A program made the translations under genes and the position numbers. A stretch of DNA of 63,511 nt. Origin: a virus. Taxonomy: Duplodnaviria; Caudoviricetes. Below, piece after piece: positions 12,382-62,726 of the stretch. The notes under the pieces are model-generated. The model was not told where the DNA came from. It searched no databases and was given only the letters and a program-made list of their open reading frames with translations. The first letter of the stretch is position 1; the number at the start of each line of letters is the position of its first letter. Location: the IMG/VR virus record IMGVR_UViG_3300025133_000099, positions 1 to 63,511 of that record, one strand, 5' to 3'.

Positions 12382-12418
12382 CCTCCGCAGATAGCTATGC
12401 CCGACCATTCAAAAACCT
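12382..12418 (-). promoter_or_regulatory. Repeated promoter/leader motif AGGTT-N12-GGCATAGCTATCTGCGGAGG (copy 1)
   Basis: Near-identical copy with the same spacing at 14354-14390. Confidence 0.6.
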
Positions 12419-14353: not shown

Positions 14354-14390
14354 CCTCCGCAAATAGCTATGCCTACGGAGGCTGGAACCT
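14354..14390 (-). promoter_or_regulatory. Repeated promoter/leader motif AGGTT-N12-GGCATAGCTATTTGCGGAGG (copy 2)
   Basis: Lies immediately downstream of the structural-operon terminator. Confidence 0.6.
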
Positions 14391-42088: not shown

Positions 42089-42142
42089 TTTTCTATCCTC
42101 CAAAGGATTGTTATGCAGTCAGTCACCTGACTATTTGTTTTG

Positions 42143-44446: not shown

Positions 44447-44772
44447 CAGATTACCCTCAGACCCATCGCAGACGCCATCGCGCCGACTCGCGGCCCCATG
44501 TGAATCGAATGAGTGTCACAAGCTTTTGCGAGTCCTCGGAGGACACGGCGCAAACCGTCGGAATGGTGGTGACGCAAGATGTAGGCACAGGTAGTTTGGG
44601 GCGCAATCCATTTCACGAGCCAACGGATCTGCTGTTTGTCGCCTTCTTCCGAAAGGCGGTCGAAACCTGCGATATTCGGCAGAGGTACGTCTTCGTTAGC
44701 GGTTCCTGGCCACACGCAAAGAATGTCCTCCAAAGACATGCTCTCGTGAAGGGTATTGTCGTTTAGTTCCAT
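44446..44772 (-). CDS. Hypothetical protein
   Basis: Coupled at both ends. Confidence 0.55.
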   Translation of the reverse strand: MELNDNTLHESMSLEDILCVWPGTANEDVPLPNIAGFDRLSEEGDKQQIRWLVKWIAPQTTCAYILRHHHSDGLRRVLRGLAKACDTHSIHMGPRVGAMASAMGLRVI

Positions 44773-47700
44773 GCCATACTCCTAAGTTTCTGGACATCGA
44801 AAACAAGTTTGAGGGCTTTTGCAAGTTCTTCGGGCAATGTTGAAGCCGCCGCAAACTGCATCGAACTTACTTGCTCGAAAGCACCTTCTGCGCGGAAATC
44901 TACACCGTTTTGCACATCTGACAAAATGCGCTCGTAGCCGATGTTGCGGGCGCGGGACATGGCACGCTTCTTCTGCTCTGTCGAAATAGGATGCTCGCGC
45001 TCGTAGCCTGTGAACACTCGCTCGCGCACCTTTGTCTTTTTCGTAGCAATCGTCCCGTCAGGTAGCTCCCCACCAGCAGCAACCCAAATGTCGTGCATGT
45101 GAATCTGACCAACCTCGGCAGACGATGCAGTCTTACGGACGTTGACAAGGTACTTTTTGGTTTTCAGAATCGCACGATCTTTAGGCGACAATCTGTCAAT
45201 GACGCGGTTCATAACATCTGTGTCAGTGACTACTGTACCGCCGACAGACTGCCGCATCTCAGCACCTACTTCCTCCAAGTTGTCCTCAACCCATGTCAGA
45301 ATCTCTTGTGCTCGAATAGCCATATAGATTGAAGCAGCATCATGTGAGTTTGCCTGCGGGCCTTCAGTCTGGATAAACCCAGAGTTGAGGATCGCTTGTC
45401 GGTCTGCCTCTGGCAGCTTGTCGATGGCTTCACGAACCCGTTTCTCGGCTTGGTTGACAACCACTGAATCGTAAGTACCGCCCTCGGCATCGACGACCTC
45501 CAACCCAGTTTCGGGGAAACTGATGAGGTTTTCGGTGCCTCCAGGAACCTTTATTTTCTTGAGATCAAGAAGCATCTGGCGTGCTGCTATGGGGCCGAGA
45601 TTCCCTGCGACAGCGCATTTATTGCTGATTGCCTCCCACTCGTCGCGAACTTGACGCTCGGCCTTAGTAAGCATGCGGTCGCACAACCCGTAGCTGTCTG
45701 CGTTTGTAGAGGCGTGGTGAGCGATTGTCGTCAAAGCCGCCTTGAAACTCTGCGCTTCCGCTGGCTCAGAGTCAGCACCTCCGAGAACCTCACCGTCAAT
45801 GACAAGACCTTCGACGACGCCCGACGGAAGCTCGCGGCTTTCAGGGTCGAAAAGCTCTTTTTCCATTTCGCGGATTGCTGTGAACGGGCCTGAACCGTCG
45901 TAGACTGGACGGCCTTTGTCGTCAACCTTCTGAGTCATCACCGTTTCAAGCTTACCAGTGTCGGGATTGCGTTGCTTTTTCTCGATCTTCTTGGCGATCT
46001 TAGGGCCGTCAGGATCGTCAGGATTCGTGAGCATCACCAAGTTGCCATCGTCGTCCCGTTGGTAAGTCATCTTTGGAACCATCACAGGTTCGCCAAGGAG
46101 TGCGGCAGACACAGCAGGTGGAAGCATACGGGCGCAGCGAGTAATCCGCTGGGCTTCCGCCATAGGTGAAGCGAGGGAATCGTACATGTACATTTCAGAA
46201 GCGTTGCCAAGGTTCATCCCAACCTGTGCGGCATCGCTGCAAATCATGACTTCGCAGTTGTTGAATACATGTTGTTGCTTCGCGCTGATAGGCTCGTCAG
46301 TCGTAGCGTTGGCTGCTGCGATTTTGGCGTACTCAGCCTTGAGCGTTGCAATCTGCTTTATTGCCTTAGCCGCATCCTCGGATGCCATCTTCGCGGGGTT
46401 ACCCAGAAGCGCGATTGAGCGTAAAATGGCGGCAGATCGCTTTGTACCGTAAAAGTAAGCCTTCGTCTCAGTCCCGTTCCCATTGTCGAGATTCACATAA
46501 GACTCAGGTGCTTTTATCTTGAACTGATGGTCGATACAGTCTCGCTGGTCAGGCGTCCACTGCGACATCTGGATAGACGACAATCCTGTGGGCAAGTGGT
46601 CGTCTGAAAAATCTCCAGGGTAAACTGCCCACGGAATCTTTAGCTTCTTGCTCGACTCAGTGCCGTCTTCGTTTTTGACGCGGTCAACGATGAACGATTG
46701 GGGCGGGCGTCCCTCCAGCACTTTGTGAACGAACAAAGACTGCTTGCTATCGCGGCCAAGCTTATCCTTGACCTTCTGGAAAATCGAGACGTTTAGTTCA
46801 CGCGAACCCGTGTACGTCGAGCCGATGTAGGTGACAAAATACTTCTGGTTTGGCCCAATACCGTCCTTAGTCGTCGGATCAGACGGGTCAAAGTGTGGAG
46901 AACCTTCGATGACTTCGTTCACATCGCGGAATCCCATAAGACGCATCTTTGCTTCCATCGTTCGACAAGACTCTAAAATACCATTTCCGAAAAGAACCAT
47001 CTGGCGTTCACCGTCAGGGCCAGCCTTTCCACCATCAGCATGGAATCGCTCGATGTGTAGCTGCAACTGGTCTGCTGCGGCGTTTCCTGTCGTCATCGAC
47101 AGATCCCACTTCACGCGGTCAATCCGCATTCCTGGATCCATCAAAGACTTCACTTGTGGCTTGATTGTCGTCTTATCTACATAGACAACACGGCTGTTGT
47201 CGCCGCGAATAAGCCCGACCTTTCCGTCTTTTTCCTCGATGCTTGCGTCGTAACGGAGGGGTGGCGGTGCCCAGTCCTCCATCGCTTTTTTCCACTCGTG
47301 ACGCTGGTCTTTCGACATGCCACGAGGCATTTTCGGCTTAGTGACACCTGCTGCCTTCAGCCCTGCTGTTGACACGCTGACGATTTCGCCGTTTTTGACA
47401 TCAGCGAAAGTCCCATTTTTAGCCAGTGGTGCATTATCGGGAACGCTCCAGTCCTCCGGGCGGTAAGGCAAATGCAGAGATCCTGCCTTGTCTGAAACCC
47501 ACCAGTCGCCTTTTTCGTAATCACCGTCGACATTCGTTTTCAGCGACACTTCCCCGTAACCGCCTGTGTCAGATGTGGTGAAGGTCGGTGAAGAAACGTA
47601 TGGTGCAGGATTTACGTTCAAAAGATCCTTGGCTTCCTGCAACCCAATGCCAAACTCAGAAGCGACATTGTGTAGTGCATTTTCTGAAGAAGCTTCTTGC

Positions 47701-50700
47701 CAATGCTGGACTGTCTGGCCGCCTGATGGTGGGTTGTGCTTGATTTCCTTTCTGAAAGCCCGCTGGACAGCGAGTGCTACTTCAATCCGTTCAGATGTCT
47801 TTTGGCGCTCAAGCTCAAGGATCGCGGCAGTTGCGTGATCACCACGCGATTTTGCTGCCTCAATCTTGTCTGAAAGGTCAACATTCCAAGGCTTCGACGT
47901 ACCTTGGAAACGAACACCAAGCGGCCCCGCGTCAGGATTGCGGATCTTAGCGCCGCCGTCCCAGCCTGCATCGGACATACGCTTCAGCGCGGCTTCTCGC
48001 TGCTTCTTAGAGACGGGAAGCTTGTAAGGATCTTTGACACCCTTGACCGCGATTCCGTAGCCAATCGGCTTACCAGCGAGTTCAGCATAAGGCATACCAA
48101 GGACTTCACGACAATACAGATCGTAGATGTTCGCGCCTTCAAAGCCAACCTCTTGAACAGAAGGCCACTTGTTCACGTTGACCTTACCGCGAGCCTTCTC
48201 GCTTGTGAGCCACGCGGGGTCGAACGTGCGGAAATCAACTGACTTCTCGCTTTCTTTCCCTTCCTTGGTGTAGCTGATCTGCGTGTGCCGAATGTAATCT
48301 TCGGTGCTCCCTGGTTTGTAGCCGATGTTCTGAGCGATGGCCTTAGCTGCTGCTGAAGCGCGTCTGGCTTCAGGGTCAGCGAGTCGTGAGGCTTCTTCGG
48401 GTGTCAGGCCAGCAGCACCTTTCATCCCTGCCGTAGCCATAAAGAGATTGTACCGCTGGGCATGAAGCCCAGTCATGTGGGCGCTCTTGTTTTCTTCGAC
48501 ACGAACTCCGGGAAGGATCTTGCCGCGTACATCAGCGCCGCGTGCAATGTGCATGTAGCGCGACAGAATCGCAGCAAGCTCACCGCGCTTGTGCGCCTTC
48601 ACTTGAAGCTTCGGCCCAGCTTTGCCCGATAGTCCAAGCTCTTTGGGGATGGGGCTTGGCTCTAAGTATTCGGCAGTGAACTTCTCAGATGTCATGTCTG
48701 CCCATTCCTTGCCGTTAGAAAGCAATCGAATGTACTCCACGAAATCCGTAGGCGACGTAGTCATTGGAGTTCCAGTGAGCAACATCATCATCTTCATGTC
48801 GCTGTTCCACTCTTTGACCTTTCTGTTCCTCTCGGCATTTTGGTTCTTGACACCTTGGTGGACTTCGTCAATGACAATCCCGTCGAAACCGCAGGTACGC
48901 AGCTTGTCTGCGTGGATTGTCCAATACTCAGGCCCGATAACGACCATATCAGGGCGATACAGTCCTGATTTGATTCCTGCCACAAAGTCGTCGATGGGAA
49001 TGTCGTTTGAGCCTGAGCCGACGACGAGTGCCCCATCATCAAAATCGTCAGCCGCTACCCGCCACTGCTCGACAGTGTTGAGTGGTGCGACAATACAGAT
49101 TCGTTTGGGATTGTCGGGGTGTTTGCGCGTGAGATCCCACGGGTGTTCTTCCATCCAAGCTTCCAGATCGACGCCTTTGAGATCAGGAGGCGGGGTGTCA
49201 CGGTACGGACGAGCCAACATCATTTTGGCGGCGACAATCGCACTGACGGTCTTACCTGTGCCCATGTAGTGGGCAGCAAGTACACGCCCGTCATTATCAA
49301 TAAACTTTTGCAGCAACTCTTTTTGGTGGTGGGCAAGCTCGAAAATCTGACCAGTCGGAAGCTGCTTCTGCAAGCCTGCTCCCCACTCGTCGGCAAGACG
49401 CGCAGGGTCGATCTGTTCAAGCTCAATGCTATGCGTTGAATCCTGCGTAGCCTTCTCTGCTGCGACCAGCATGTCTGCTCGATCTTTCAAAAGGCGATCC
49501 GCACCGTCGGTGAGCGACAATCCGCCAACTGCTTTCCGCAGTTTGTGGAAAGTATCCAAGTCGCATCGAATATAGTCGACGACTCCTGTCAGCTTGTTTG
49601 GAACAGCGGACACACCGTCGACCGTCGAAAGAACGCCCTCGGTGATTCGCCCGTCGCGGGGCAGCTTCAGGCGCATCTCACGGCTGACAGTGGCACCACT
49701 ACGCGGATCAACTTCTTCGTGTAGATAACCAAGCAAGTCTTTTTCCAAAGCGTCGGGAGAAGCTGAAGAAATAGGTTGACGGGTAGACGACAATACGGCT
49801 TTGTCGCCTGATCGACGGAATGACCGCCCAGGAGCGCCGCCGCCCACCTCGCCAATAAACTCGTAAACAGTCTCGTAAGCTTTCGACTTTTCAGCCTCGA
49901 AAGTAGTTTTCCACTTGGCTTTCGCTGGCTTGTAGTGGTCGTGATACCACTTCTTTTGAGGTTTCGAGCCGTTGTACCAAGGAGGTAAGACCCCTGATGC
50001 AATAAGCTTGCGCTCATGTGGCGAAACCTTACCTGCTGGGGCAGCAGGGATGTCCTGTACAAGAGGGTCAAAGCCTTCAGGCATTCGATCCCACCCTGGT
50101 TCCGCTGGAGGTTCGCCAGCCTTCTTACCCATAATCACGCGAGAAAGGCGAGCGACAACGTCCTTGCGCTTTGCAGACGCAGCTACCTGTTCCTCTGGCT
50201 CAACTGTGATGATTACGCGCTCAAGGTGCCTTGGTAGCTGACCAGCTTTACGCTTGGGTGGCGGGCGCATTCGCACCTGCTCGGCAGGAATAATAGACCT
50301 GTCGACATTCCTGATGTCTTTGAACATCGTGTCTTTTTCAAGCATGTGGTCGACACGCGGAGTCTCTTGACCCAGTCGGCGCTTCCACTCTTTTCCAAGA
50401 ATCTTCGGCTGTCCAGAGCCGTCAAACTGAACTTCCATGTGGTAATGGTGCCCAGTGTCGCCAGCCTTATCAACCTTCCAGCGGCCTTTACTGTCCTTGT
50501 AGCGGCGACGATCTGTCTTGACAGACATCCAAGTCGTGCGCTTTGCGCGTGCCGCAACACGGGAGTATTCCTCAAGGTGCGCTGCGCTGGTTACTTCTTC
50601 GCCATTCGGCGTGAGCAGGCGTGACCACATCGGATTGTCGATGCGGAAGCTTCCGCTGCCATCCCGCTTGGTCTTGATAACGGTACTCGTACCGTCGGGA

Positions 50701-52964
50701 TTCTCGTTGGTGTACTTCACAGCATCGAGGATCGGTATGCCATCGCCATCGACGACGACTACGCCGCGTCTGAATCGACCGCCTACATTCACCATCTTGC
50801 CTGTCGTCGGATCTTTGATCTGGGAGCCTTTCGGCCAGCGACGGTTTTCAAGCCTGACGCCTGACTGCTTGGCGCGGAAATCTTCGATGAGTGCTGCGTG
50901 CTGCGCCGAGCCAACCTTGGCGTTCTTGATCTTGTCAAGAATGTCCTGCCCTACCATCTCAAAGCGGTCGTAAGCGAACGTCCCGCTGTGTAGTCGGTGG
51001 TGCCTGCCTGTGACTTCGTGAGGCATCATAGTCGCGGGTAGAGGCATTCCGCCCTTACCTGATGTGATTGTCGTCGCCCAGTCAGTGTGATCCAACAGCT
51101 TTTCAAGGCGATCAATAACCTTCTGAAGCTTCTCGCGGTCTTTACCAGTAGCGGTCGCGAGGGCCGTGTAAGAATCGCGGAGTTTCCGCATGTCTGCGTC
51201 GAGCTTCGGTCGCCCAAACGAACGCAGGATCATGCGAAACTCGCGCTTGTTGACTACGCCTGAGATCAGTGGGTCGCTCGTATCGAATCCGTGCTCGTGC
51301 AGGTATCCCGCCGTGACCTCAACCTCTGCACCCTTATGCTTCACAATCCCGATGACCTGATCGTCCGAAATGACATCTTGAATCAGGTGAAAATACGCGA
51401 ACCTCGGATCAATCTTGTTGCCCTTTTCGTCGAAAACTTCCTTGATCTCATCAGCGGTCGGCTGACGCTGCTTGCCGCCCTCGCGTGCTGGTTCCCACCC
51501 AGAGTAATCTTCGTTTGGTGCCTTTGGCCCCATGCGAAAATGAACGCTGCGTGAACGGTAGTTCATCTCGAAAAAGCGGTCATGGTTCCCGTCGCCAACT
51601 GCTCCGATGGAGTCCCAGTCTGGAGGATCTTTGCTGTAAACTTCCCCTGCTGCATCCAGATGAGGTTGCGTCTGCATCAAACGCTGAATCTTCGATGGGG
51701 CTGAGTCCAACCACCACTGGAGTCTCGGATCATTCTCAGGGTCTGCGATGTCCATAATCCCTGTTGACATGTCCAGTTTGCGACGGAGCATTTCGCGCTC
51801 GCCTGTCGAGGCTGCGGATTCCAGCTTTTCCTGAAGCTCTGCAATCAGTGCTGGGTCGCTTTCACGCGGCATCATTACGTCATCGCCGAAAAAGTTACGG
51901 AACCAGTCGTATGTCTTTGGTGATGTCGCTGCGAGCGTCCAAGGATACATCAAGGCGGCTGTGAAGCTCTCAGCCCAACGCTCTTTGGTATTTTCTTCTG
52001 CGTAAGTCGTAACGCCCTGCTCCCCACCCTTCTTACCGATCTTGTCTTTTTTATTCTTGCTCAGGTGTTCACGCGAAAAAGACTCCCAATCTGCCCAGTT
52101 AGGGCCGTCGTAATCGCGGAGTCGCATCGGCCCAACAGCACCCATCTGGTTGTGAACAGCATGGGCGATCTCGTGAATCGCAACGTGGACGGGGCCGAGT
52201 GCGCCGTCGCAAAGAACTTTCTTAGTCTTTGCGTCCCAGTTCGATAGACCCTTATCTTTCCCACTGCCTGAAAAGCCAAAGTTAGTATTGATAACGATTT
52301 CACTGGTGCCGTCTGGGAGGGCACGACAATAGCCGCCTGCACCTGAACTTCGCAAATACGAGTCCTCGTCAGCGGATGCAACGGTGATTCCCTTGATCGA
52401 GCCACTCCAGTGCTGCCTGATGACGGCGGGGAGACGCTTCATAGCCATCTCTAAGGCACGCAACGGGGTGATCTGTTGGCCGTGTAAATCGTCTGGTTCT
52501 TCTGTCGAGGCGTAGTATTCGCGAATACCGTCCTCGAATACTTCCCGCGCTGTGGGCGAAAGCGTGATGTCTGGCGGCTTGTCCCAGCCAAGCAAAGTCG
52601 CGACGTAGTCCTCAGACAGATCACGCAAGTCCTCGCGTTGAACCTTTAGCTCTTTGAACGCCGATTTGAACTCTGACTTGTTCTTGTGGCGCTTCTCAAG
52701 ATTCTTGATCTTCGCCTTCTTGTTCTTGATTCTCCTTGCCTGATCCTCAAGATAGTTCTGACGGTCTTTTGGAGTGTTGTAGTAGTAGTCCCACCCCAGC
52801 TTGCCATTGTGGATGGTACGGATTCGTCGCCAGTATTTGTGGCCAGCTTTAGGCCCACGGCTAAAGCCTTGCCCTGCCTTCTCAATCGTGTCTGAGAGTT
52901 CTTCTGAGTCGGCGGAAACGTGGGCGAGAAAACCCTTTGAAAGTCCAAGGCGAAACTTACTCAT
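44763..52964 (-). CDS. Giant multidomain protein: zincin metallopeptidase + SNF2-family helicase (polyvalent/DarB-like)
   Basis: HEIAH...TYAEENTKERWAESF; HYMGTGKT, IVAPLN, IVIDEVH, LLTGTP, SDAAQVGMNL, EAQRITRCAR. Confidence 0.85.
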   Translation of the reverse strand: MSKFRLGLSKGFLAHVSADSEELSDTIEKAGQGFSRGPKAGHKYWRRIRTIHNGKLGWDYYYNTPKDRQNYLEDQARRIKNKKAKIKNLEKRHKNKSEFKSAFKELKVQREDLRDLSEDYVATLLGWDKPPDITLSPTAREVFEDGIREYYASTEEPDDLHGQQITPLRALEMAMKRLPAVIRQHWSGSIKGITVASADEDSYLRSSGAGGYCRALPDGTSEIVINTNFGFSGSGKDKGLSNWDAKTKKVLCDGALGPVHVAIHEIAHAVHNQMGAVGPMRLRDYDGPNWADWESFSREHLSKNKKDKIGKKGGEQGVTTYAEENTKERWAESFTAALMYPWTLAATSPKTYDWFRNFFGDDVMMPRESDPALIAELQEKLESAASTGEREMLRRKLDMSTGIMDIADPENDPRLQWWLDSAPSKIQRLMQTQPHLDAAGEVYSKDPPDWDSIGAVGDGNHDRFFEMNYRSRSVHFRMGPKAPNEDYSGWEPAREGGKQRQPTADEIKEVFDEKGNKIDPRFAYFHLIQDVISDDQVIGIVKHKGAEVEVTAGYLHEHGFDTSDPLISGVVNKREFRMILRSFGRPKLDADMRKLRDSYTALATATGKDREKLQKVIDRLEKLLDHTDWATTITSGKGGMPLPATMMPHEVTGRHHRLHSGTFAYDRFEMVGQDILDKIKNAKVGSAQHAALIEDFRAKQSGVRLENRRWPKGSQIKDPTTGKMVNVGGRFRRGVVVVDGDGIPILDAVKYTNENPDGTSTVIKTKRDGSGSFRIDNPMWSRLLTPNGEEVTSAAHLEEYSRVAARAKRTTWMSVKTDRRRYKDSKGRWKVDKAGDTGHHYHMEVQFDGSGQPKILGKEWKRRLGQETPRVDHMLEKDTMFKDIRNVDRSIIPAEQVRMRPPPKRKAGQLPRHLERVIITVEPEEQVAASAKRKDVVARLSRVIMGKKAGEPPAEPGWDRMPEGFDPLVQDIPAAPAGKVSPHERKLIASGVLPPWYNGSKPQKKWYHDHYKPAKAKWKTTFEAEKSKAYETVYEFIGEVGGGAPGRSFRRSGDKAVLSSTRQPISSASPDALEKDLLGYLHEEVDPRSGATVSREMRLKLPRDGRITEGVLSTVDGVSAVPNKLTGVVDYIRCDLDTFHKLRKAVGGLSLTDGADRLLKDRADMLVAAEKATQDSTHSIELEQIDPARLADEWGAGLQKQLPTGQIFELAHHQKELLQKFIDNDGRVLAAHYMGTGKTVSAIVAAKMMLARPYRDTPPPDLKGVDLEAWMEEHPWDLTRKHPDNPKRICIVAPLNTVEQWRVAADDFDDGALVVGSGSNDIPIDDFVAGIKSGLYRPDMVVIGPEYWTIHADKLRTCGFDGIVIDEVHQGVKNQNAERNRKVKEWNSDMKMMMLLTGTPMTTSPTDFVEYIRLLSNGKEWADMTSEKFTAEYLEPSPIPKELGLSGKAGPKLQVKAHKRGELAAILSRYMHIARGADVRGKILPGVRVEENKSAHMTGLHAQRYNLFMATAGMKGAAGLTPEEASRLADPEARRASAAAKAIAQNIGYKPGSTEDYIRHTQISYTKEGKESEKSVDFRTFDPAWLTSEKARGKVNVNKWPSVQEVGFEGANIYDLYCREVLGMPYAELAGKPIGYGIAVKGVKDPYKLPVSKKQREAALKRMSDAGWDGGAKIRNPDAGPLGVRFQGTSKPWNVDLSDKIEAAKSRGDHATAAILELERQKTSERIEVALAVQRAFRKEIKHNPPSGGQTVQHWQEASSENALHNVASEFGIGLQEAKDLLNVNPAPYVSSPTFTTSDTGGYGEVSLKTNVDGDYEKGDWWVSDKAGSLHLPYRPEDWSVPDNAPLAKNGTFADVKNGEIVSVSTAGLKAAGVTKPKMPRGMSKDQRHEWKKAMEDWAPPPLRYDASIEEKDGKVGLIRGDNSRVVYVDKTTIKPQVKSLMDPGMRIDRVKWDLSMTTGNAAADQLQLHIERFHADGGKAGPDGERQMVLFGNGILESCRTMEAKMRLMGFRDVNEVIEGSPHFDPSDPTTKDGIGPNQKYFVTYIGSTYTGSRELNVSIFQKVKDKLGRDSKQSLFVHKVLEGRPPQSFIVDRVKNEDGTESSKKLKIPWAVYPGDFSDDHLPTGLSSIQMSQWTPDQRDCIDHQFKIKAPESYVNLDNGNGTETKAYFYGTKRSAAILRSIALLGNPAKMASEDAAKAIKQIATLKAEYAKIAAANATTDEPISAKQQHVFNNCEVMICSDAAQVGMNLGNASEMYMYDSLASPMAEAQRITRCARMLPPAVSAALLGEPVMVPKMTYQRDDDGNLVMLTNPDDPDGPKIAKKIEKKQRNPDTGKLETVMTQKVDDKGRPVYDGSGPFTAIREMEKELFDPESRELPSGVVEGLVIDGEVLGGADSEPAEAQSFKAALTTIAHHASTNADSYGLCDRMLTKAERQVRDEWEAISNKCAVAGNLGPIAARQMLLDLKKIKVPGGTENLISFPETGLEVVDAEGGTYDSVVVNQAEKRVREAIDKLPEADRQAILNSGFIQTEGPQANSHDAASIYMAIRAQEILTWVEDNLEEVGAEMRQSVGGTVVTDTDVMNRVIDRLSPKDRAILKTKKYLVNVRKTASSAEVGQIHMHDIWVAAGGELPDGTIATKKTKVRERVFTGYEREHPISTEQKKRAMSRARNIGYERILSDVQNGVDFRAEGAFEQVSSMQFAAASTLPEELAKALKLVFDVQKLRSMAWN

Positions 52965-53293
52965 GATCGTCTCTCCCCCATCAAATCTGTGTTGGGAATA
53001 GTGCGAACAGCATGCTCAAAGTGTTGGGCGTCTTTGGGGTTCGCGATCCCGATTGTCGTCATGTCGATTGTTTGCCCATCGACAACTTCCTCAAGGCCAC
53101 TCATCACAGTCGTTGGCTCCTGCATGTGGTCATGCACCATCGCGAGGAATGCTGAGTCGGCTACCTGCGGGTCGTAGTCTACAACGTCGAACCCAGACCC
53201 TGCGTGGGTGTCGGCCACCAGCGTGCAGGCGAAACGCCTGAACGGTCGCGTCATAAACCGTCGCCAAATGTGCCATTGTCGTTCGTCACTCAT
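52961..53293 (-). CDS. Hypothetical protein (likely start MSDERQW)
   Basis: AAGGAG RBS; coupled to neighbours. Confidence 0.6.
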   Translation of the reverse strand: MSDERQWHIWRRFMTRPFRRFACTLVADTHAGSGFDVVDYDPQVADSAFLAMVHDHMQEPTTVMSGLEEVVDGQTIDMTTIGIANPKDAQHFEHAVRTIPNTDLMGERRS

Positions 53294-55949
53294 TGCTATC
53301 TCCTTGCGTCTCTGCCGCTTTTCGTCGACCTTCACGCCCCATAAATCTCAAGAATCGTTCTTCACTCATTACCCTGCTGGTTCCTTTTTCGCGACCAACC
53401 TTAGATCGGTTTTTAGGGTGCAGCATGTTCTGAAGATGGTTTGTCAGGATTTCTTCTGCGTACAACCAAGAACTTGCTGGATCTGTGCCGCGCTGCGGCC
53501 CCGTATCGTGAACAAGTGAGGGATCGACGGTGTGCGTCTTGGAATGGGCTTCAAACTGACGCTGGCGTTCCTCGCGCCTGCGAGTGTAAAACCACTCTCG
53601 GAGCGTCTCAGACTGCTTTTTACTCAGCTTGCCAGCTTTCTCTTTGTCCAGAAGCTTGCCGACTCGCTCCTGCTCGCCTGCTCGCTGCCCTGCCATGAAC
53701 ATCTGTACGCGGTCGTCGGAGCCAAAGCGTTCTTTCAGATCATTGTAGGAAAATCCACCGACCGACTTGACCTTGGGCACATGCGATCTGGCTGCTGTCC
53801 AACGCTTCACGCGGTTTGCACTTTCAGCGCCAAGCTGATTCGCGATTTCCTTGTATGTCGCGGTCGCTGCTGATCTGGCGCGTTCGCCCTTTCGTTGAAC
53901 TGTGCGGTCACTATCTTTAGGCAGCGCAAGACCAAGCTCGACAGCCAAGTCATAATCACTCATCAAACCAGTGCGCGATTTGGATTGTCGTCTGCTTTCA
54001 GCCTGCGGCGTGTCGCCTGCAAGACCCTCCCGTTCAAGGCCAAAAAGCACAGTGAGTGTTTCTGCTTGCGAGGATGGCATCTTCGCGAGGATCGTTTCAA
54101 GCTCAGCACGCAGGTGGTGCTGAGTTCCTTGGGGCAGGGTTGAGTCTCCGCCAACAGGAAGCAAACTGCCCTCATTTTGATTCATCCATTCTGAGTCTGC
54201 TACGCGGTCGCCAGCGGTGATCCTCTCCATCTCTCCGATAAGTTGTAGCTTTCCAGGGTAGACCTTCCCGTGCTCTGTTCCGTCTGGCCCTTTGACTTGC
54301 CAAGGTTCATTCGGAACCTGCTCGTGTGCTTGGTCGATGACTTTGTCGCCGTCTGAGTACACGCCCAAACCTGAGTTTGCGCCAGTGAACGTCAGTCGTT
54401 TTGGAAGATACCAAGATCGGGCGATTGCCTCCTGTGTGGGGCTGTCAGTTTTCTGACTTGCGCGGCTTCTCGCTGCAATGAATCCATGCACCAACTGCAT
54501 CTGTCGGTGAGGAATGGCAGCACTACCGCCAGTCAGAGTTTCACGAGCAGCCTTCGTCGCATAGACGCGGCAGTAGTCATTGGCTTTCAGCGCGAAAGGT
54601 TGCCCTCCTGCGAAAGCTCTGAGCGACAATACAAATCCGAGAATCGCGCCAGACTTTACTTCCTCGAACTCCGCTGTTTCCCCGCCGTCGTTGAACATAG
54701 CGATTCGGTGGCTCTTAGCAACGTCACGAGCGGCTGCATGAATCATCGCGCCGAACTCTTGCAGCATGCCTGCTTGGTCGGCTTGAGGGACGAATACAGC
54801 CCATTCTCGGCGGTTCTGCGCCTGATGGTTGTCCTTGTAGACGGCGAGCATGTATTCGCCGTTTTCAAGCTTGTGGAGAAACGTGCCTTCAGCAGCTTGG
54901 CTGTCAGCGTAAACGGCTGCGCGTCGGGCTTCAGCACCGATTGGGACGCCTTCTAAATCCTTGGGAACTGGAGGCTGATCTTTAGCGGGAGTTCCGACGA
55001 CAATCGGAGGTTTAGCCCGAACTGGTGGCTTTGCGCGTGGTTGCGTTCGCTTGCGCGGGCGGGCGATTGCCTTCTTTTTCTTGCGCTTTTTCTCAGCTTT
55101 TCGCTCGGCAAGATCGAAAGAGCGCATTGGTTGAATACTCTGCTTGGCGACACGCTCTGGTGTTCCGCCTGCACGCTTGTGGGCAGCGTCGTAAGGTGTC
55201 ACCCAAGTATGCTTTTCATCGGTTTCCGCATGGTCTGGCGTCCAAACGAACAGTCCCTTGCGACCGCCGACATGGATGAACGCGCCCGCTTCGATGCTGT
55301 CAACACCCAGACCTTTCTTCGGGTCGGGTTCCCAGTCGAGGGTGTGATGAGCCTTATCTTCAGTCGGATACCAGTAGAGCCAACCGCCGCTTGATTTGCG
55401 CTTTCGGTAGCCGCCTTTCTTGCTTCCAAACGCCATGAACCCAGCAGGAGGCTTATTTGATTTTGCCATCCAGATAGATTTAGTCACAGTGTCGTTCATC
55501 CATGGTATCCCGTCTTCATCTCCGTTCGACGTTCGTTCGCGAATAGCGTCAACCGTCGTTTCGATGCAGCCGACAATCGCACGATTGTCGCCTTGATAAT
55601 AAGCAGTCCAAGCTTTTATTGCTTCTTTTTCTGTCGGAAATCCCAGAGCAACCTTATCTTCGCCGTACTGCTTAGGCTCTTTCGGGCTGTCGGAATCGCT
55701 ACCGTGAGCATCTTGCAGAACAAAGACTTTGTCGGACTGCCAGTCTGATCCGAGAATGACATCAATCGGATCGCCGTCGACGCCTTTTCGTTTTGGAATG
55801 TCGCCATACGAGAATCCGACAAGCTTCTGTCCAGACGACGGATTCTTGTCACCGTCGACAACCTCCAGCCCAACAAGAATGCCCCTAAAGTTGACTACGC
55901 CTTTGTAGTCGCCCTGTGGTGGCCCCATGATTTCCCTGACAGATTTCAT
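53286..55949 (-). CDS. Fusion of inorganic-pyrophosphatase-like (InPase) domain and sigma-70-like domain
   Basis: YGDIPKRKGVDGDPIDVILG...YGEDKVALGF; sigma region 2-like EVKSGAILGFVLSLRAF...FALKANDYCR; region 4-like ILAKMPSSQAETLTVLFGL...DLAVELGL...RTVQR. Confidence 0.72.
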   Translation of the reverse strand: MKSVREIMGPPQGDYKGVVNFRGILVGLEVVDGDKNPSSGQKLVGFSYGDIPKRKGVDGDPIDVILGSDWQSDKVFVLQDAHGSDSDSPKEPKQYGEDKVALGFPTEKEAIKAWTAYYQGDNRAIVGCIETTVDAIRERTSNGDEDGIPWMNDTVTKSIWMAKSNKPPAGFMAFGSKKGGYRKRKSSGGWLYWYPTEDKAHHTLDWEPDPKKGLGVDSIEAGAFIHVGGRKGLFVWTPDHAETDEKHTWVTPYDAAHKRAGGTPERVAKQSIQPMRSFDLAERKAEKKRKKKKAIARPRKRTQPRAKPPVRAKPPIVVGTPAKDQPPVPKDLEGVPIGAEARRAAVYADSQAAEGTFLHKLENGEYMLAVYKDNHQAQNRREWAVFVPQADQAGMLQEFGAMIHAAARDVAKSHRIAMFNDGGETAEFEEVKSGAILGFVLSLRAFAGGQPFALKANDYCRVYATKAARETLTGGSAAIPHRQMQLVHGFIAARSRASQKTDSPTQEAIARSWYLPKRLTFTGANSGLGVYSDGDKVIDQAHEQVPNEPWQVKGPDGTEHGKVYPGKLQLIGEMERITAGDRVADSEWMNQNEGSLLPVGGDSTLPQGTQHHLRAELETILAKMPSSQAETLTVLFGLEREGLAGDTPQAESRRQSKSRTGLMSDYDLAVELGLALPKDSDRTVQRKGERARSAATATYKEIANQLGAESANRVKRWTAARSHVPKVKSVGGFSYNDLKERFGSDDRVQMFMAGQRAGEQERVGKLLDKEKAGKLSKKQSETLREWFYTRRREERQRQFEAHSKTHTVDPSLVHDTGPQRGTDPASSWLYAEEILTNHLQNMLHPKNRSKVGREKGTSRVMSEERFLRFMGREGRRKAAETQGDSNE

Positions 55950-56968
55950 GCCGCACCCTCATCTTCGTCAGGGAACAGTTCGCCGCCTGCTCCGACAATG
56001 CTGGGTGCGGCCTTTCCGCTGCTCCAGCCGTCAGGCATGACGAGGTAGTTTGGCAGGCGAATCAACGCGCAAGCGCAATACGGGTGCAGTGGGCCGATGA
56101 CTGGCTGCCAGTCGGCACGCTTTCGACCGACGTTCGTACCGTTGCCCGATAGCTCGTCAAGGACGAAAATGCGTGGAGCGCCACCCTCAAGGTGCTGCTC
56201 AACACAATGCTTGCAGGCGTCAGGCTTAGGCAGCTTGTACGCAAGGATCTGGAAAGCTGGCCGCTTTTCGGCTTGAGCCGCCTCCGCTTCTACTTCTTCC
56301 CACCCTGCACGCAGACCCTCATTCCAAGCCTCCTGTGATTCGGTCTGGACGATTCGCGTCCAGTCGCGTGCCCAGTCCTTCGTCGCGTGGCCCAGATCGC
56401 TCCGAACCCGACCAAGCGTCGAACGAAACTCGTTATCGAAAAAATCGTCACCCAAGCCGAGATCGACGCCACGGGCTTTCATCCGTTTAGCTGCGTCGTC
56501 ATCGCCGAACTTTGCCGCCACAGCGTCTTTGATCGTCAAGCGCATCTTATCCTCAAGAGCGCGATCCGCGTTGACGAGAATGCGGCCCGTCGCTGCTTCA
56601 ACACGGTTTCCAAGGCCACGAACGAATGTCGCTGCGCGGGCGTTAGCTGCATCAGCGGCTTTGCGCTCAGTGCGCGTCATTGGCGTTGTGTGGCGTTTGA
56701 TTTCGTCCACCCACTCAGCAGCGGTCGTTCCGTAGCGGCTGTACTGCTGCGCGTGGTCAAGGTGCGCGAGAAAGCTCCCGAACATCGAGAGGTTCGCAGC
56801 TATTGCTTCTTTTGAAGCTTTCGGGTCGACAAACCCCAGAGCAACTGCCAGATCCCATTCTTCTTTGCTTACAGCGTCTTTACCATAGACGGTAGCTGCA
56901 ACAGCGCCATGATAGCGTTTGAGAATGTCTTGAACCTCTCGAATCGTGCTGGGGGTGAGAATGAACAT
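55946..56968 (-). CDS. MuF/SPP1 gp7-like minor head protein
   Basis: RIVQTESQEAWNEG, ACKHC, GPLHPYCAC. Confidence 0.8.
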   Translation of the reverse strand: MFILTPSTIREVQDILKRYHGAVAATVYGKDAVSKEEWDLAVALGFVDPKASKEAIAANLSMFGSFLAHLDHAQQYSRYGTTAAEWVDEIKRHTTPMTRTERKAADAANARAATFVRGLGNRVEAATGRILVNADRALEDKMRLTIKDAVAAKFGDDDAAKRMKARGVDLGLGDDFFDNEFRSTLGRVRSDLGHATKDWARDWTRIVQTESQEAWNEGLRAGWEEVEAEAAQAEKRPAFQILAYKLPKPDACKHCVEQHLEGGAPRIFVLDELSGNGTNVGRKRADWQPVIGPLHPYCACALIRLPNYLVMPDGWSSGKAAPSIVGAGGELFPDEDEGAA

Positions 56969-58213: not shown

Positions 58214-59974
58214 TTATAGATCGATTTCGTATCGAACGATGCGGGAAGTAGGTGGTCGACTATCCGCTGACAACTCTAAACCGATTTGGTCGGACTTTGC
58301 AACCATTGATCCCTGATTGTCGTCTGCTTCGGCTGCTGGTTCGCCCCCAACATCTTGATTGTCCTCGTCAGCAAGGCTGAGATCATGCGCTTCATCATCA
58401 AACTGATCGTCAGGATCTTCGTATTCCTCGTCGCCATAGCCGTCGTCTTCCCCACCTTCAGCGTCCTCGTCGGCCATAGCTTCTTGCGACTGGATGTATT
58501 GTAGCCATGTCGGATCAAGGATGACATCACCCTTACCGTCTCCCATAGGCTCAAGCCCAACGAAATGTCGTGCTTCGTCGACAGTCATGTAGATTTTGGT
58601 CTGCTTCTGAAGCAAGTCCGTTTCCGCGTCAGGGCCGCGCTGATCAAGACCGATGGGAACAGCCTCGAACGCGGGGTCGATAACTTGCAAAAAATGCTTG
58701 TTGATGCAGTCGAAAAACCAGTAGACGAGTGGGCGCAGACCGAGATCACGAGAAGCCTTCAGCTTTTCTTCGATAGGAGCCTGCCCCATCGCCTGTGATT
58801 GCCCGCTGTTACCGTAGGAAAAGTTGACCTCTTCTGGAGCGATCTGGTAGCGGGCGCAGACGATCTTGATCAAAAAATCCATCCATGCGCCCATCTCCAT
58901 GTCCTTGTTGGACATTTGCATATTGATCCACTGAAGTTCCTCTGCGTTTGTGATGGGTGTGCGCCAGCTATTGTGTACCCCGGCGACCATTGCGTACCAT
59001 TGTCGTCTAAAGCTCTGAAGGTGTTTGTCGGGAATCGTGCCCTTGAAGTTCAGGATTCCTTTCGTGCTTGACCCTTGTGAGAAAAATCGGCGGTTGTACT
59101 CGATACCCCAAAGAAATCCAGTGATCTCGCGAACAAGAGTTTCAAGCTCTGACAGCCCGTACCCGTAGCTACGGATTCCGCTTCGTGGATTCCTGATGCA
59201 GAAAGCCATTTCGTCTGAAGTAAAGTCGGCGACAATACTGCCATGAACGACTTGAACGGCGAAAGGCTTTCCCTTTTCTTGAACAGCAGGATCGAGAAGG
59301 CGGATTGTCGTTGGGTCTACAATCGAAATGTACGAAGGCTTGCCCTTCTTGTCAGGGACAAGCTCGAAACAGGCTTGGTCATACGTCAGCGAATCGCGAA
59401 TGAACATTCCGCAGAACTCTCGGAGACTGACAAAGTCCTTGGTGTTCTTACCGTCAACATAGCCCGTGTGCAGTAGAACATGCTCAAGCTCGTCGCAGCG
59501 TGCTTGCGTCTTTTTATCGATCTTACGGGTGCGATCTCGCGGGCGCACCTTGAACCCAGGACTGTACCGATCTTCTGGACGCTGGCAGAATGTTTGGGTT
59601 TGCGTCATTCGCGTCCTGATGACATCGGCAAGAACTGGGACACCCTGCGCTGTGGACTCCATCGCACTGAATGACAGTTGACTTGGGCGCTCTCGCCAGC
59701 CCATGAGCGACACGAGATCAAACGGGTCAAAGCTGATCGCTTTGGGGTCGGCTGCCGCGTCGTGAGAAGCGTCGAACGTATGCGTGCCGTCCTTCCCCAT
59801 CGCCTTAGCCATTGAAGCGGCTTTGTTGATGTTGTCGTCGAAATCACGCACTTTGCGGTCATTGTCGCGTTCTTCAGCCCAGCCGCTCAGTCGATCCGCG
59901 CCTTCACGGACAGCGGTAGAAGCAGCGGAGGTTGCCGCTTCTGCTGCGGCCTTGATGTCGTCACGAATCCCCAC
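58214..59974 (-). CDS. Portal protein (SPO1/Twort-like)
   Basis: IRDSLTYDQACFE, VDPTTIR, RNPRS...YGLSELE, FFSQG...KGIL, FRRQW, DLGLRPL, TVDEAR. Confidence 0.92.
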   Translation of the reverse strand: MGIRDDIKAAAEAATSAASTAVREGADRLSGWAEERDNDRKVRDFDDNINKAASMAKAMGKDGTHTFDASHDAAADPKAISFDPFDLVSLMGWRERPSQLSFSAMESTAQGVPVLADVIRTRMTQTQTFCQRPEDRYSPGFKVRPRDRTRKIDKKTQARCDELEHVLLHTGYVDGKNTKDFVSLREFCGMFIRDSLTYDQACFELVPDKKGKPSYISIVDPTTIRLLDPAVQEKGKPFAVQVVHGSIVADFTSDEMAFCIRNPRSGIRSYGYGLSELETLVREITGFLWGIEYNRRFFSQGSSTKGILNFKGTIPDKHLQSFRRQWYAMVAGVHNSWRTPITNAEELQWINMQMSNKDMEMGAWMDFLIKIVCARYQIAPEEVNFSYGNSGQSQAMGQAPIEEKLKASRDLGLRPLVYWFFDCINKHFLQVIDPAFEAVPIGLDQRGPDAETDLLQKQTKIYMTVDEARHFVGLEPMGDGKGDVILDPTWLQYIQSQEAMADEDAEGGEDDGYGDEEYEDPDDQFDDEAHDLSLADEDNQDVGGEPAAEADDNQGSMVAKSDQIGLELSADSRPPTSRIVRYEIDL

Positions 59975-59976
59975 GG

Positions 59977-60258
59977 CTATTCCTTATTCGGGTTCAAGCC
60001 CGTCATCGGGTTCATTAGCCTACCGTTGGGAAAGCGTGGAACTGGGTCAATAGGTGGATTACCCATGTGCGGATCGGTGCCCATGTCGATGTTTCTTGGC
60101 TTCGCAGCGGGCGCTGCGCCTGTGCGACGAACCGTCGCTGGATTCTCAATGGCAACACCACTGTCGTGGTAGGTCACGCTTCCGATCTTGTAGCTGTCTA
60201 CTGGCTTCTTTTCTGATTGCTTGATCATGTCAAGAACGCTCATTTTCGTATCACTCAT
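59977..60258 (-). CDS. Hypothetical Pro-rich protein
   Basis: Coupled to neighbours. Confidence 0.55.
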   Translation of the reverse strand: MSDTKMSVLDMIKQSEKKPVDSYKIGSVTYHDSGVAIENPATVRRTGAAPAAKPRNIDMGTDPHMGNPPIDPVPRFPNGRLMNPMTGLNPNKE

Positions 60259-62726
60259 TTGTCGCCTCCTGCGTACATAGCTCGAATATGCGGTGCATAC
60301 TCCATATTCATATTTGAATGTTTTGTTTCAGATTTGAAAGTTTTAGATTTCGACATGTCCTGATCTTGGACGACAATCGACTTTTTCACAGCGCCAGCAG
60401 CGTGATCTGCCATCTGGTGGTAGTAGTCGCCCGTTTCTTTCGCTGTTGGGTGCGACATGTATTGCTTCATCGCGCTGTGGTATTCCTCGCCTTTAGGGGT
60501 GTGGTAGTTGTCACCCTGCGTGCGTAGGTGCCTTTCAAAATCAGGCTTGGTTTCTCCACTGGCGTCAAGATCCATGCGGGCGCTATGCGTACCGTCGGGA
60601 TGCGTCATGGTGATCGAGGTTTTTCGGTAGCCGCCTCCTGGGTCTGCGGCGACAATCCCAGCGAGTGCGCTGTTTAGGTCTTCGACGTTGTCAAACTCCA
60701 AGCCCTCGTGGGTGCCCATACGGGCACCACGTTCATTGAGGCGGTCACCCAGCTTGCCTTCGTGGTCGTCGATCTTGAACTTGACTTTAGACTCTTTCTT
60801 GGGAAGGTCTGACAGCCTTCCAGTAGTGGAAACAGCAGCGGCGTGGGTGGCGCGTTCCATGTTTGGCAGATTCCTGTGCAGTCTGGATGGGTCGCGACCA
60901 GACGCTTCATGTACTCGACTCAGTTGGTCATGGTAACGCCCTGCCGAGTTGTGCTTTGCAGCTTCTTCCCACTTACCTTCCCCCTGAAGCTGATCGGACA
61001 ACGCCCATTTGTGATCGGCGCGAGCGTTGTGTTCCGCTGCCGCCTCTTTATGATCGTCTTCCGACCAGCCGACAGTGTGGTCGCGAAAGTTGGATTGAGA
61101 TAGGAAAGCCATCTTCTTTCCTGACGCGGTATTTCCCACCGAATGGGTATCGCCGCGCTTGTTGGCGGGTGCCTTGGTGCTTTCAACAGCTTCCGCTGCT
61201 TCGGTGTGTGCTTGCTTGAGTTTGCGGGCATCACGCAAAGCGTGGTTTGCGTTTGACACATCATACTTCTCAGGCCCACCGTACCTGAACTTACCCAACT
61301 TCATTGCGCCGTGGGCTTCTGCCATTTTTCCATGGTATTCCGACTCGTACTTGTGGGCAAAATAAGCATTTGAATCTTTGCGAGCGTCCATCTTCTTTGC
61401 ATGGGCCTCGTACATCAGCTTCGAGTGCTTCTTAGCTAAAGCGTGGTGCTCGTCCTCAGTCGTGTCCTTGTGATCGTTGTGCCAACCCTTCTCAGTCCCG
61501 CCGTGTGCGTGCTTGCGTTGGCGGGAGGCTGTCTTGCCGTCCTTCCACGCGATGGTGTGATCACTGTCTGCCCACTTGCCTCCGCGTTTTCCGATGAATG
61601 GCCCGCCGCCTGCTTTGAGCAGATCGGGATTGTCGTCTACTGATTTCGTTAGCCCTTGCCGCTTGAAATCCCTGTATATTTCCATCGACATAACAGGGTC
61701 TGTTGCAGTGTACTCAAAGAGGTTTTCCGCATCTGGGTCATTCACCTCATCTTTGATTTCAGCGACTGAAACTCCGTAGTGGTTAGCCACATGATTCAGG
61801 ATCTTTGTCCTCTTCGCGGCTGGTAGGCTGTCGAGATACTTCGCGTTCGCGTGTTCCTTGCTCGCGGTCTTGTCCTCCCACTTTGTAGCTTGGTCATAGG
61901 GTGACGATCCTCCACTCATGATCTGCGATGCGTGGTGCTTTGCAGACTCCAGAGTGTTGTGGCCACTGACAGTCGGGTCGCTGTGCGCCCCGCCTGCGTA
62001 GTCTGAGGTTCCCTGCTTTGCTGAATCCCACGACTGCTCGATGCTGTGCCCTTGGGCTTCTCCGTTCTTGTCTACATGAGCGACGACCTTGACCTCTTGC
62101 CCTCGGCTTGATCGGTGATGGCTGATGACTTTCTTATCAAGCTTGCGAACCTTTGCTTGCTTGGCGTGGTGTTCATCCCAGTGAGCGTCGTGGTGTGCTA
62201 CGGCCTCTTTTCGATTCTTTTCTGCCAGCTTATACATCGCTGCTTGCTCGGCACCATCACCGCGTAGTGCGGCCTCTGAAGCCATCCGCATAGCGTTGTG
62301 GTGCGCCATTTCGGAAGCAAGCATGTTGTCGTGGTGGCTATTGTCGCCTTTGAAACCCTCAAGGTGCTCGTCGCGTTTATTCTGGTGATGAACCACCAGC
62401 GCGTCATGCCTCTCTGGGCCGATGTGCATACGGTCGCCTCGCGCTGTCTCGCGTCCGTCATGCGAGTGATTGTGCTCGTCATCGACCTTCCCACGCTTGT
62501 AGCTGTTCTGATCTGGATACCAGTAGTCCCAGCCGCCTTTCGCGTTTCGTTTCCGCATCCCGTGGTTGCGGGTCTTGGGCACAGGTGTCCAGCCCGACGC
62601 CTTCTGAAGATCAGGTTCGCGCCCTTCGAGACGCGCCAGCTTATTGTCGTCAAGTGCTTGGGCTTTTCTCACACCTCGATGGTGTGCTTCTGCGCCTTTG
62701 ACCAAGTCAAGTAGCTCGTTACTCAT
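60255..62726 (-). CDS. His-rich modular protein, putative internal head protein
   Basis: Roughly one residue in ten is His by eye; DLxK(A/G) linkers; GGWDYWYP module. Confidence 0.65.
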   Translation of the reverse strand: MSNELLDLVKGAEAHHRGVRKAQALDDNKLARLEGREPDLQKASGWTPVPKTRNHGMRKRNAKGGWDYWYPDQNSYKRGKVDDEHNHSHDGRETARGDRMHIGPERHDALVVHHQNKRDEHLEGFKGDNSHHDNMLASEMAHHNAMRMASEAALRGDGAEQAAMYKLAEKNRKEAVAHHDAHWDEHHAKQAKVRKLDKKVISHHRSSRGQEVKVVAHVDKNGEAQGHSIEQSWDSAKQGTSDYAGGAHSDPTVSGHNTLESAKHHASQIMSGGSSPYDQATKWEDKTASKEHANAKYLDSLPAAKRTKILNHVANHYGVSVAEIKDEVNDPDAENLFEYTATDPVMSMEIYRDFKRQGLTKSVDDNPDLLKAGGGPFIGKRGGKWADSDHTIAWKDGKTASRQRKHAHGGTEKGWHNDHKDTTEDEHHALAKKHSKLMYEAHAKKMDARKDSNAYFAHKYESEYHGKMAEAHGAMKLGKFRYGGPEKYDVSNANHALRDARKLKQAHTEAAEAVESTKAPANKRGDTHSVGNTASGKKMAFLSQSNFRDHTVGWSEDDHKEAAAEHNARADHKWALSDQLQGEGKWEEAAKHNSAGRYHDQLSRVHEASGRDPSRLHRNLPNMERATHAAAVSTTGRLSDLPKKESKVKFKIDDHEGKLGDRLNERGARMGTHEGLEFDNVEDLNSALAGIVAADPGGGYRKTSITMTHPDGTHSARMDLDASGETKPDFERHLRTQGDNYHTPKGEEYHSAMKQYMSHPTAKETGDYYHQMADHAAGAVKKSIVVQDQDMSKSKTFKSETKHSNMNMEYAPHIRAMYAGGDK

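Follow-up and report, generated by a model that had tools for sequence, protein, structure and literature searches.

How might a bacteriophage impose its own transcription on a cell before any of its proteins has been made there? Immediate control of this kind is known to be gained in three ways: from promoters read by the host sigma-70 factor, with an injected RNA polymerase (RNAP), as in N4, phiKZ-like and crAss-like phages, and with injected enzymes that modify the host RNAP, such as T4 Alt. The question is raised anew by a gene at positions 53286-55949 of the IMG/VR virus record IMGVR_UViG_3300025133_000099, a linear stretch of 63,511 nt, about 68% complete by estimate, which was analysed whole and is called the window below. 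Nearly all genes of the window lie on the minus strand (-), as does this one, and according to the list of open reading frames (ORFs) and its translation it encodes a protein of 887 residues, P0001. The initial annotation had proposed that P0001 is a sigma factor fused to a pyrophosphatase-like domain, loaded into the capsid, freed by the prohead protease and injected to redirect host RNAP. Here we report that P0001 combines a pyrophosphatase-like (InPase) domain with a very divergent core whose homology to the sigma-70 family we regard as established from profiles and structure models, and that its gene keeps a fixed place in a head-assembly cluster. The whole account, in which P0001 would be packaged, cleaved and injected as a sigma-like cargo acting on host RNAP, seems to us about evenly balanced between right and wrong.

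Family profiles relate the core of P0001 to sigma-70 factors

Searched as a single sequence against PDB sequences, P0001 gave one irrelevant match (E 0.55), and PHROGs matched its InPase part only. With a profile of eight sequences (P0001 and seven relatives), all 14 PDB sequences found at E ≤ 10 were sigma factors, the best at E 0.0035, and a 53-sequence profile of the family matched Bacillus subtilis SigA (7ckq_F) at E 1.7e-10. The alignment to SigA consists of two collinear stretches, covering SigA 161-249 (regions 2.2-3.1) and SigA 298-357 (region 4). Among the matches listed for the 53-sequence profile, 58 of 60 were sigma factors, the other two being an InPase-bearing portal and a pyrophosphatase. 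Pfam matches to Sigma70_r2, r3 or r4 at E ≤ 0.01, in the correct order, were obtained for nine of 45 relatives; only one of the 45, P0028, passes curated sigma cut-offs (Sigma70_r4_2, 30.9 bits vs 25.7; r4, 25.0 bits vs 24.1).

Within P0001, the sigma domain 2-like part comprises residues 353-474 (54528-54893, on the minus strand like all coordinates given for this gene) and holds regions 2.1-2.4 together with a β-hairpin insert, as indicated by the profile, by the fold search VIA-wide and by docking. The segment at about 54540-54760 that the initial annotation had likened to region 2 lies inside it. Helices resembling sigma regions 3.0/3.1 follow at residues 481-520 (54390-54509), where the hidden Markov model (HMM) alignment runs through SigA 'IPVHMVETINKL...PTPEEIA', and one relative, P0047, has a weak Sigma70_r3 match (E 0.0072). 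A sigma domain 4-like helix-turn-helix (HTH) with a loop insert occupies residues 607-709 (53823-54131). For the region 4-like segment that had been placed at about 53860-54115, profile and fold agree in putting it within this domain, although the single sequence has no Pfam match there. Some relatives (P0010, P0018 and P0019, and also P0006 and P0007) contain a SAP DNA-binding domain within the loop of this domain.

Two further parts of the core are peculiar to the family. Between the sigma3- and sigma4-like parts stands a β-sheet insert (about residues 529-579; 54213-54365), the most conserved stretch of the P0001 family (DQ..E.VP..W...P.G...GK.PGK), with Q201, P207, G218, G222, G227 and K228 near-invariant in alignment A2 and with no database match found. 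The C-terminal end is formed by a helical domain (residues 714-887; 53289-53810) that carries conserved RFG.D..V, RAG and VDP motifs and gave no PDB, Pfam or fold match.

Predicted structure and RNAP interface of the core

We modelled residues 340-887 with AlphaFold2 (AF2) on the 53-sequence alignment and obtained a mean pLDDT of 84.7 and a pTM of 0.75, with strands at model residues 191-225, in the β-sheet insert, and helices in the C-terminal domain. VIA-wide, which is independent of Foldseek, assigned residues 353-474 to the sigma domain 2 fold (3ugo_A, Z 8.8, root-mean-square deviation (rmsd) 4.7, 102 residues aligned; 4x8k_A, Z 8.4; 1sig_A, Z 8.2; 8b3z_A, Z 7.2, rmsd 2.7, 77/80 aligned) and residues 607-709 to the sigma domain 4 fold (3hug_A, Z 7.2, rmsd 3.1, 80/80 aligned; 6ono_B, Z 6.5, rmsd 2.6, 67 aligned; 4g6d_A, Z 6.1, rmsd 2.2, 62/62 aligned). 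Chance alone can give helical models Z values in this range (6-9). Of the best 27 VIA-wide matches, at least 20 were sigma chains, recognised by their titles or by their naming in the profile search. Taking these Z values together with the profile E-value and the collinearity of the two stretches, we consider it established, on profile and model evidence, that the core is homologous to the sigma-70 family. The sigma2/sigma4 fold in the C-terminal region, the lack of which had been named beforehand as grounds for giving up the proposal, is thus present by family profile, AF2 model and VIA-wide. The modelled core departs from a canonical sigma factor in four respects, namely the hairpin insert in sigma2, the β sheet between sigma3 and sigma4, the loop in sigma4, and the C-terminal domain of about 170 residues.

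The initial annotation had also suggested modelling with RNAP. When residues 340-484, with their alignment, were docked on β' residues 230-345 of Escherichia coli, a stand-in for the β' of the host, the sigma2-like part was placed on the β' clamp helices with an ipSAE of 0.71, as compared to 0.00-0.02 for controls; of 80 solved complexes, 58 attain the ipSAE mark applied, as do 2 of 110 mismatched pairs. The docking runs share at least 81% of their contacts, partner pLDDT is at least 82, and the predicted interface joins β' 267-298 (the clamp helices) to the region 2.1/2.2-like helices. What these models predict for the sigma2-like part is the canonical β' clamp-helix interface. Since sigma-core complexes are abundant among solved structures, the docking score may partly reflect likeness to them, and we read it as showing that the likeness extends to the interface rather than as showing actual binding.

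An InPase domain, putative cleavage sites and a basic/aromatic module precede the core

The N-terminal half of P0001 proved to be built largely as the initial annotation had described it. An InPase (type I pyrophosphatase-like) domain spans residues 13-138 (55536-55913; PF18823, E 4.2e-15, 56.2 bits, cut-off 26.8), and its DGDPIDV motif is intact in the translation. Next come two K-S sites, VTK157-S158 and MAK163-S164 (55458-55487), found by regular expression and regarded as putative prohead-protease sites; K163 is invariant in all eight aligned homologues. They are followed by a basic/aromatic module delimited with a local HMM, KPPxG..GxKKGGYRKRK..GGWLYWYP (residues 166-195; 55365-55454), in which GGWLYWYP, the GGW-x-YWYP element noticed earlier, makes up residues 188-195 and W193, Y194 and P195 are invariant in alignment A3. 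A basic linker rich in Lys, Arg and Pro (about residues 281-340; 54930-55109), likewise noticed earlier, is seen in the translation; the N-terminal model ends there in a stretch of low pLDDT.

That model, an AF2 prediction of residues 140-345 (mccbe4d329a22; pLDDT 81.8), shows the module as a β-hairpin leading into a small barrel. The small β domain, together with a helix at residues 280-295, corresponds to 55065-55364, and the barrel itself, at about residues 217-279, is SH3/KOW/Tudor-like. Fold matches of the N-terminal model were weak and generic, consisting of SH3/KOW/Tudor barrels and ribosomal proteins (best VIA Z 4.6, Foldseek E 0.067), and for this reason we give the barrel a fold class and no family. 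A CarD/TRCF-type RNAP-interacting domain was considered for the barrel and rejected on the same ground.

Copies of the module occur well beyond P0001. The module HMM found 201 copies in 128 of 174 collected proteins, with up to six per protein. N-terminally, 169 of these copies are bordered by a site of the type L-x-K-A/S, as compared to 660 of 4020 random windows (16%), a count that is partly circular, the module HMM having taken in the site columns. In polyvalent proteins the module is interposed between cargo domains, as in P0020 with the order InPase, two modules, S-AdoMet lyase, a third module and the sigma-like core. Three proteins of the window bear site and module. Besides P0001, these are g823, a protein of 823 aa encoded upstream of the portal gene (60255-62726 (-)), with 'LQK↓AS + KGGWDYWYP' at residues 40-74 (the arrow marking the putative cut), and a giant SNF2 protein, whose N-terminus carries a variant form: a short peptide resembling a propeptide, with IEK↓AG at its end, then 'GPKAGHKYWRR..GKLGWDYYYNTP'. 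This N-terminal arrangement of the giant protein is found in all six viral loci that we compared, and its site fits [LI]-x-K-[AS] in five of them. Relatives of P0001 that lack InPase share their short N-terminal opening, 'MR.GL...L.K↓A', with the giant proteins.

As a side observation, g823 may be a third capsid cargo; Pfam, PHROG, NCBIfam and other profile searches gave no family for it, and 19 unnamed relatives were found.

The motif is unevenly spread over the virion proteins of the window. In the scaffold, [LIMV]-x-K-[SA] occurs nine times against 0.82 expected, a number that none of 1000 shuffles reached; enrichment is mild in the capsid protein (4 vs 1.05 expected) and in g823 (6 vs 2.0), and the motif is almost missing from tail proteins. 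The capsid protein and the S78 protease have AL.KALTAG in common (ALNKALTAG at about residues 41-49 and ALAKALTAG at about residues 178-186, respectively), which is likely a maturation cleavage site. Because the motif is enriched in the scaffold and AL.KALTAG is common to capsid protein and protease, we infer that L-x-K↓A/S is the prohead protease site and, by analogy, that P0001 would be cut inside the prohead at K163↓S164, possibly at K157↓S158 as well. Precedents for such cleavage are T4 capsid-targeting sequences and HK97-type maturation.

Gene neighbourhood and the case for packaging

The gene for P0001 is surrounded by a myovirus head and tail module. The portal gene (58214-59974 (-); PF04860, E 1.1e-18; phrog_12, E 1.7e-46), whose product is 37-39% identical to portals of SPO1-like phages, is followed by two small ORFs, g182 and g130, and by g340 (340 aa; 55946-56968 (-)), the stop of which overlaps the ATG start of P0001. 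On the other side, two small ORFs, g124 (124 aa) and g108 (108 aa), flank the gene of the giant SNF2 protein (2733 aa; 44763-52964 (-); SNF2-rel_dom, E 1e-13), after which come the S78 prohead serine protease (43159-44160 (-); PF04586, E 7.5e-5; phrog_1028, E 2.1e-43), the scaffold (42143-43159), an SU10-type major capsid protein (40598-42103 (-)) and, farther on, the tail sheath. The initial annotation had set the gene between a MuF gene and the giant SNF2 gene. Whereas the SNF2 neighbour is confirmed, g340 can be called MuF-like at lead level only, with a language-model Atlas score of 0.94 to Phage_Mu_F clusters (79% of the cluster members carry PF04233) and no match in Pfam, PHROG or NCBIfam HMM searches.

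A search with HMMER of 1.84 billion cluster representatives returned 340 relatives of P0001 at E ≤ 1e-3, 87 of them at E ≤ 1e-30, to none of which the source records give a functional name. A single-protein search of viral contigs for related loci found none, and a search with alignment A3 found six IMG/VR loci. In all six, as far as the contigs reach, the gene order is portal, g182, g130, g340, P0001 gene, g124, giant SNF2, g108, protease; g340 is syntenic in five, and in the sixth the end of the contig cuts it. InPase is present in 31 of 45 relatives, and others add Topoisom_I (type IB), S-AdoMet lyase or SAP. Proteins bearing the module also carry ART-PolyVal, LPD1, N6_Mtase with SNF2, and ddrB-ParB. 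With several unrelated domains that are shuffled among relatives, and with its gene between portal and prohead protease, P0001 fits the polyvalent pattern. P0058 and P0061, which have the module and a portion of the sigma-like core, unexpectedly also contain domains of a membrane-protein family, TMEM65 (PF10507).

An InPase of this type has a studied counterpart inside a capsid. The family profile matches residues 625-759 of gp19, the portal of Pseudomonas phage Pa193 (9b41_L), by its InPase at E 2.4e-28, and residues 529-765 of gp19, which follow the barrel, are unmodelled and without density in the map (PMC11456595, whose main text does not mention pyrophosphatase). The capsid interior of at least one studied phage thus contains such a domain, in the C-terminal extension of the Pa193 portal. 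Iyer et al. (2017; PMC5512222) argue that polyvalent proteins with InPase are packaged and injected, and propose removal of pyrophosphate or degradation of nucleotide signals as their task. Head-cluster synteny, fusions to polyvalent-type domains, the common site and module, and motif enrichment in the scaffold lead us, by analogy, to consider it fairly probable that P0001 is packaged in the virion.

What P0001 would do in the infected cell

On the account that we favour, P0001 would be a polyvalent cargo protein, made together with the head genes and built into the prohead. There the S78 protease would cut it at L/M-x-K↓A/S between the InPase and the GGYRKR..WxYWYP module, and P0001 would be expelled into the cell together with the phage DNA. 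Its sigma-like core would then bind host core RNAP via the β' clamp helices and direct or tether the enzyme to the incoming genome before any phage protein synthesis, while the InPase part would remove pyrophosphate or a nucleotide signal. Loading, cleavage, ejection and promoter-specific initiation are all steps of this proposal that we put forward from the domain make-up and gene context, and whether P0001 is a true initiation factor seems almost evenly poised. If the account is right, injecting a sigma factor would add a fourth way, and a more economical one, to the known means of immediate transcription control and would explain early promoters unlike those of the host in some phages without a virion RNAP.

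A broader reading makes the P0001 family both the first sigma factor carried in a phage capsid and the cargo of a general, undescribed loading code, consisting of a short N-terminal propeptide, the L-x-K↓A/S site, and the GGYRKR..WxYWYP module with up to six repeats as separators. We regard this reading as possible though on the doubtful side. Were it true, these phages would load and release effector domains of any kind. The site-plus-module linker could also be put to use as a tag that brings foreign proteins into capsids, and it provides a testable rule for the cut points in giant polyvalent proteins.

Several observations weigh against the favoured account, in addition to the limits on the VIA Z values, the edge-site count and the choice of β' given above. 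As a single sequence, P0001 has no Pfam sigma match even at E ≤ 10 and no NCBIfam sigma match. Foldseek found nothing at E ≤ 0.001 for the core model in the PDB or in viral BFVD, its weak top rows being mostly sigma factors, a null that is expected because P0001 is a multidomain protein with an arrangement unlike that of a holoenzyme-bound sigma. Across P0001 as a whole, [LIMV]-x-K-[SA] is not enriched (3 vs 1.98 expected), and in the acidic motif of the InPase the family consensus YDEDK reads YGEDK, with Gly at one acidic position. Among the cultured phages of INPHARED, blastn gave no DNA match and tblastn two InPase-only protein matches, so that no cultured sigma-like relative was seen, and a search of reference genomes with alignment A3 found no relative. 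Because the reference bacterial genomes yielded none, we name no host for the phage.

Other observations concern promoter recognition. In the HMM alignment, sigma70 Y430, W433 and W434, which by their numbering we take to be the aromatics that melt the -10 element, are replaced by K, D and Y in P0001, and since most of these aromatics are replaced, promoter opening of the group-1 type is not assured for the P0001 core. Nor were early-region promoters visible in the roughly 68%-complete record. The promoter that the initial annotation had offered, AGGTT-N12-GGCATAGCT, was found in two exact copies, at 12393-12418 and 14365-14390 (-), both upstream of replication genes and both continuing with TAT-yTGCGGAGG and then a start codon; a third exact GGCATAGCT, at 20656-20664, lies within a gene. 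The element is probably a phage promoter. It can be assigned neither to P0001 nor to the second candidate of the window, the small sigma-like protein P0156 (220 aa; 1825-2487 (-)) at the edge of the replication module, with which the phage would have two sigma-family proteins. The initial annotation had called P0156 an ordinary sigma factor; it is a weak match to the extracytoplasmic function (ECF) type, by TIGR02937 (E 1.3e-5) and by Atlas (0.97-0.98 to sigma-70/ECF clusters), but its TIGR02937 score of 24.9 bits is under the cut-off of 42.9, and it gave no Pfam, PHROG-function or PDB match.

According to the main rival, P0001 is packaged and ejected, and its core is a decoy or tether on host RNAP without promoter-specific opening, either occupying the sigma site to shut off host transcription or holding RNAP or DNA at the entering genome. 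The rival draws on the same packaging evidence and on the predicted clamp-helix interface, it accommodates the poorly conserved group-1 melting aromatics and the large non-sigma additions (the β insert and the C-terminal domain), and it could leave the promoter work to the small ECF-like sigma. A simple core-binding decoy, however, would need neither of the DNA-reading domains, sigma2 and the sigma4 HTH, and both are conserved across the 340 relatives, some of which even add a SAP DNA-binding domain in sigma4. We judge this rival unlikely, though not strongly so.

Less likely again is an ordinary intracellular middle or late sigma factor, encoded in the head operon, fused to a nucleotide-metabolism domain and never packaged. 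Precedent speaks for it, as to our knowledge the characterised phage sigma factors (SPO1 gp28/gp34, T4 gp55 and phiEco32 gp36) all act after synthesis in the cell. Against it stand the place of the gene, fixed in six of six loci between the portal/MuF-like genes and the prohead protease, the fusion of the core to S-AdoMet lyase, type IB topoisomerase and InPase in relatives, the adjoining DarB-like giant proteins, and an N-terminal propeptide and module common to two other head-cluster proteins. Moreover, late transcription could not be started by a factor that is itself made only with the late head genes. We find it improbable that the sigma-like fold was taken over for an internal head or 'pilot' protein that binds DNA, condensing it, protecting its ends or aiding circularisation, with no role at RNAP: HTH domains, the basic linker, SAP inserts, an SH3/KOW-like barrel of a kind common in nucleic-acid binders and a MuF-like neighbour would suit it (SPP1 gp7-type proteins bind DNA in the head; Iyer et al., 2017; PMC5512222), but the region 2.2-like helix is conserved and in the models docks confidently on the clamp helices, and the collinear sigma2-sigma3-sigma4 arrangement is kept.

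Comparison with known systems

In sigma-70 factors, those of groups 1-3 (SigA/RpoD, RpoS and FliA) as well as the phage factors SPO1 gp28/gp34 and phiEco32 gp36, the sigma2, sigma3.0/3.1 and sigma4 parts are collinear as in P0001. Unlike them, P0001 remains under every Pfam sigma threshold, has the melting aromatics mostly replaced, adds the β insert, the loop in sigma4 (with SAP in some relatives) and the C-terminal domain of about 170 aa, and has its core fused behind InPase, linker module and SH3-like barrel. Whereas phage sigma genes lie among early or middle genes, the gene for P0001 is in the head-assembly cluster.

The virion RNAPs of N4, phiKZ-like and crAss-like phages follow the logic that we propose for P0001, in that transcription capacity is present in the particle before phage protein synthesis; these phages carry a whole polymerase, whereas in the case of P0001 the particle would bring no more than a specificity subunit for host RNAP. 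In T4, internal proteins and Alt have a capsid-targeting sequence that is cleaved by the prohead protease, whereupon they are injected, and Alt modifies host RNAP. Alt is among the proteins described by Iyer et al. (2017; PMC5512222). The likeness to the T4 proteins consists in several head-cluster proteins of the window having a short putative N-terminal propeptide that ends in a candidate protease motif enriched in the scaffold, and in host RNAP being the presumed target of P0001 too. The differences are that there is no sequence relationship, that the motif is L-x-K↓A/S here and L/I-x-E in T4, and that Alt is an ADP-ribosyltransferase, whereas the effector of P0001 would be a sigma-like RNAP subunit. 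The portal gp19 of Pa193 and other PB1-like phages likewise has an InPase, but one fused to the portal itself and without a sigma-like part.

Polyvalent proteins, as characterised by Iyer et al. (2017; PMC5512222), resemble P0001 in being multidomain, in carrying InPase and in their late or structural context. They are predicted there to be delivered with the DNA to 'jump-start transcription', the transcription cargo named being N4-like RNAP and RNAP-modifying enzymes, and processing by zincin-like metallopeptidases is proposed for them, whereas P0001 has a site of the prohead-protease type, L-x-K↓A/S, with the module. The word 'sigma' does not occur in the main text of that paper; its supplements might list the region under an LPD-type name. 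Where phage sigma factors come up in a jumbo-phage survey by these authors' group (PMC7824862), it is solely as intracellular factors. Literature searches found no description of a phage sigma factor delivered by the virion, full-text phrases for such a factor matching only reovirus sigma proteins.

Other transcription-related and neighbouring genes of the window

When the P0001-family profile was compared to P0156 with hhalign, region 2.1-2.3 was aligned, not significantly (probability 0.4, E 0.15). A six-frame scan of the whole record for Sigma70_r2 (PF04542) gave nothing at E ≤ 0.01, and Pfam scans of the window proteins detected no RNAP gene, the record being about 68% complete. The window also pairs an AAA_5 ATPase of the MoxR/CbbQ type with a CobT-like VWA protein (2484-4646 and 5525-6583 (-)), a combination that is frequent in phage genomes.

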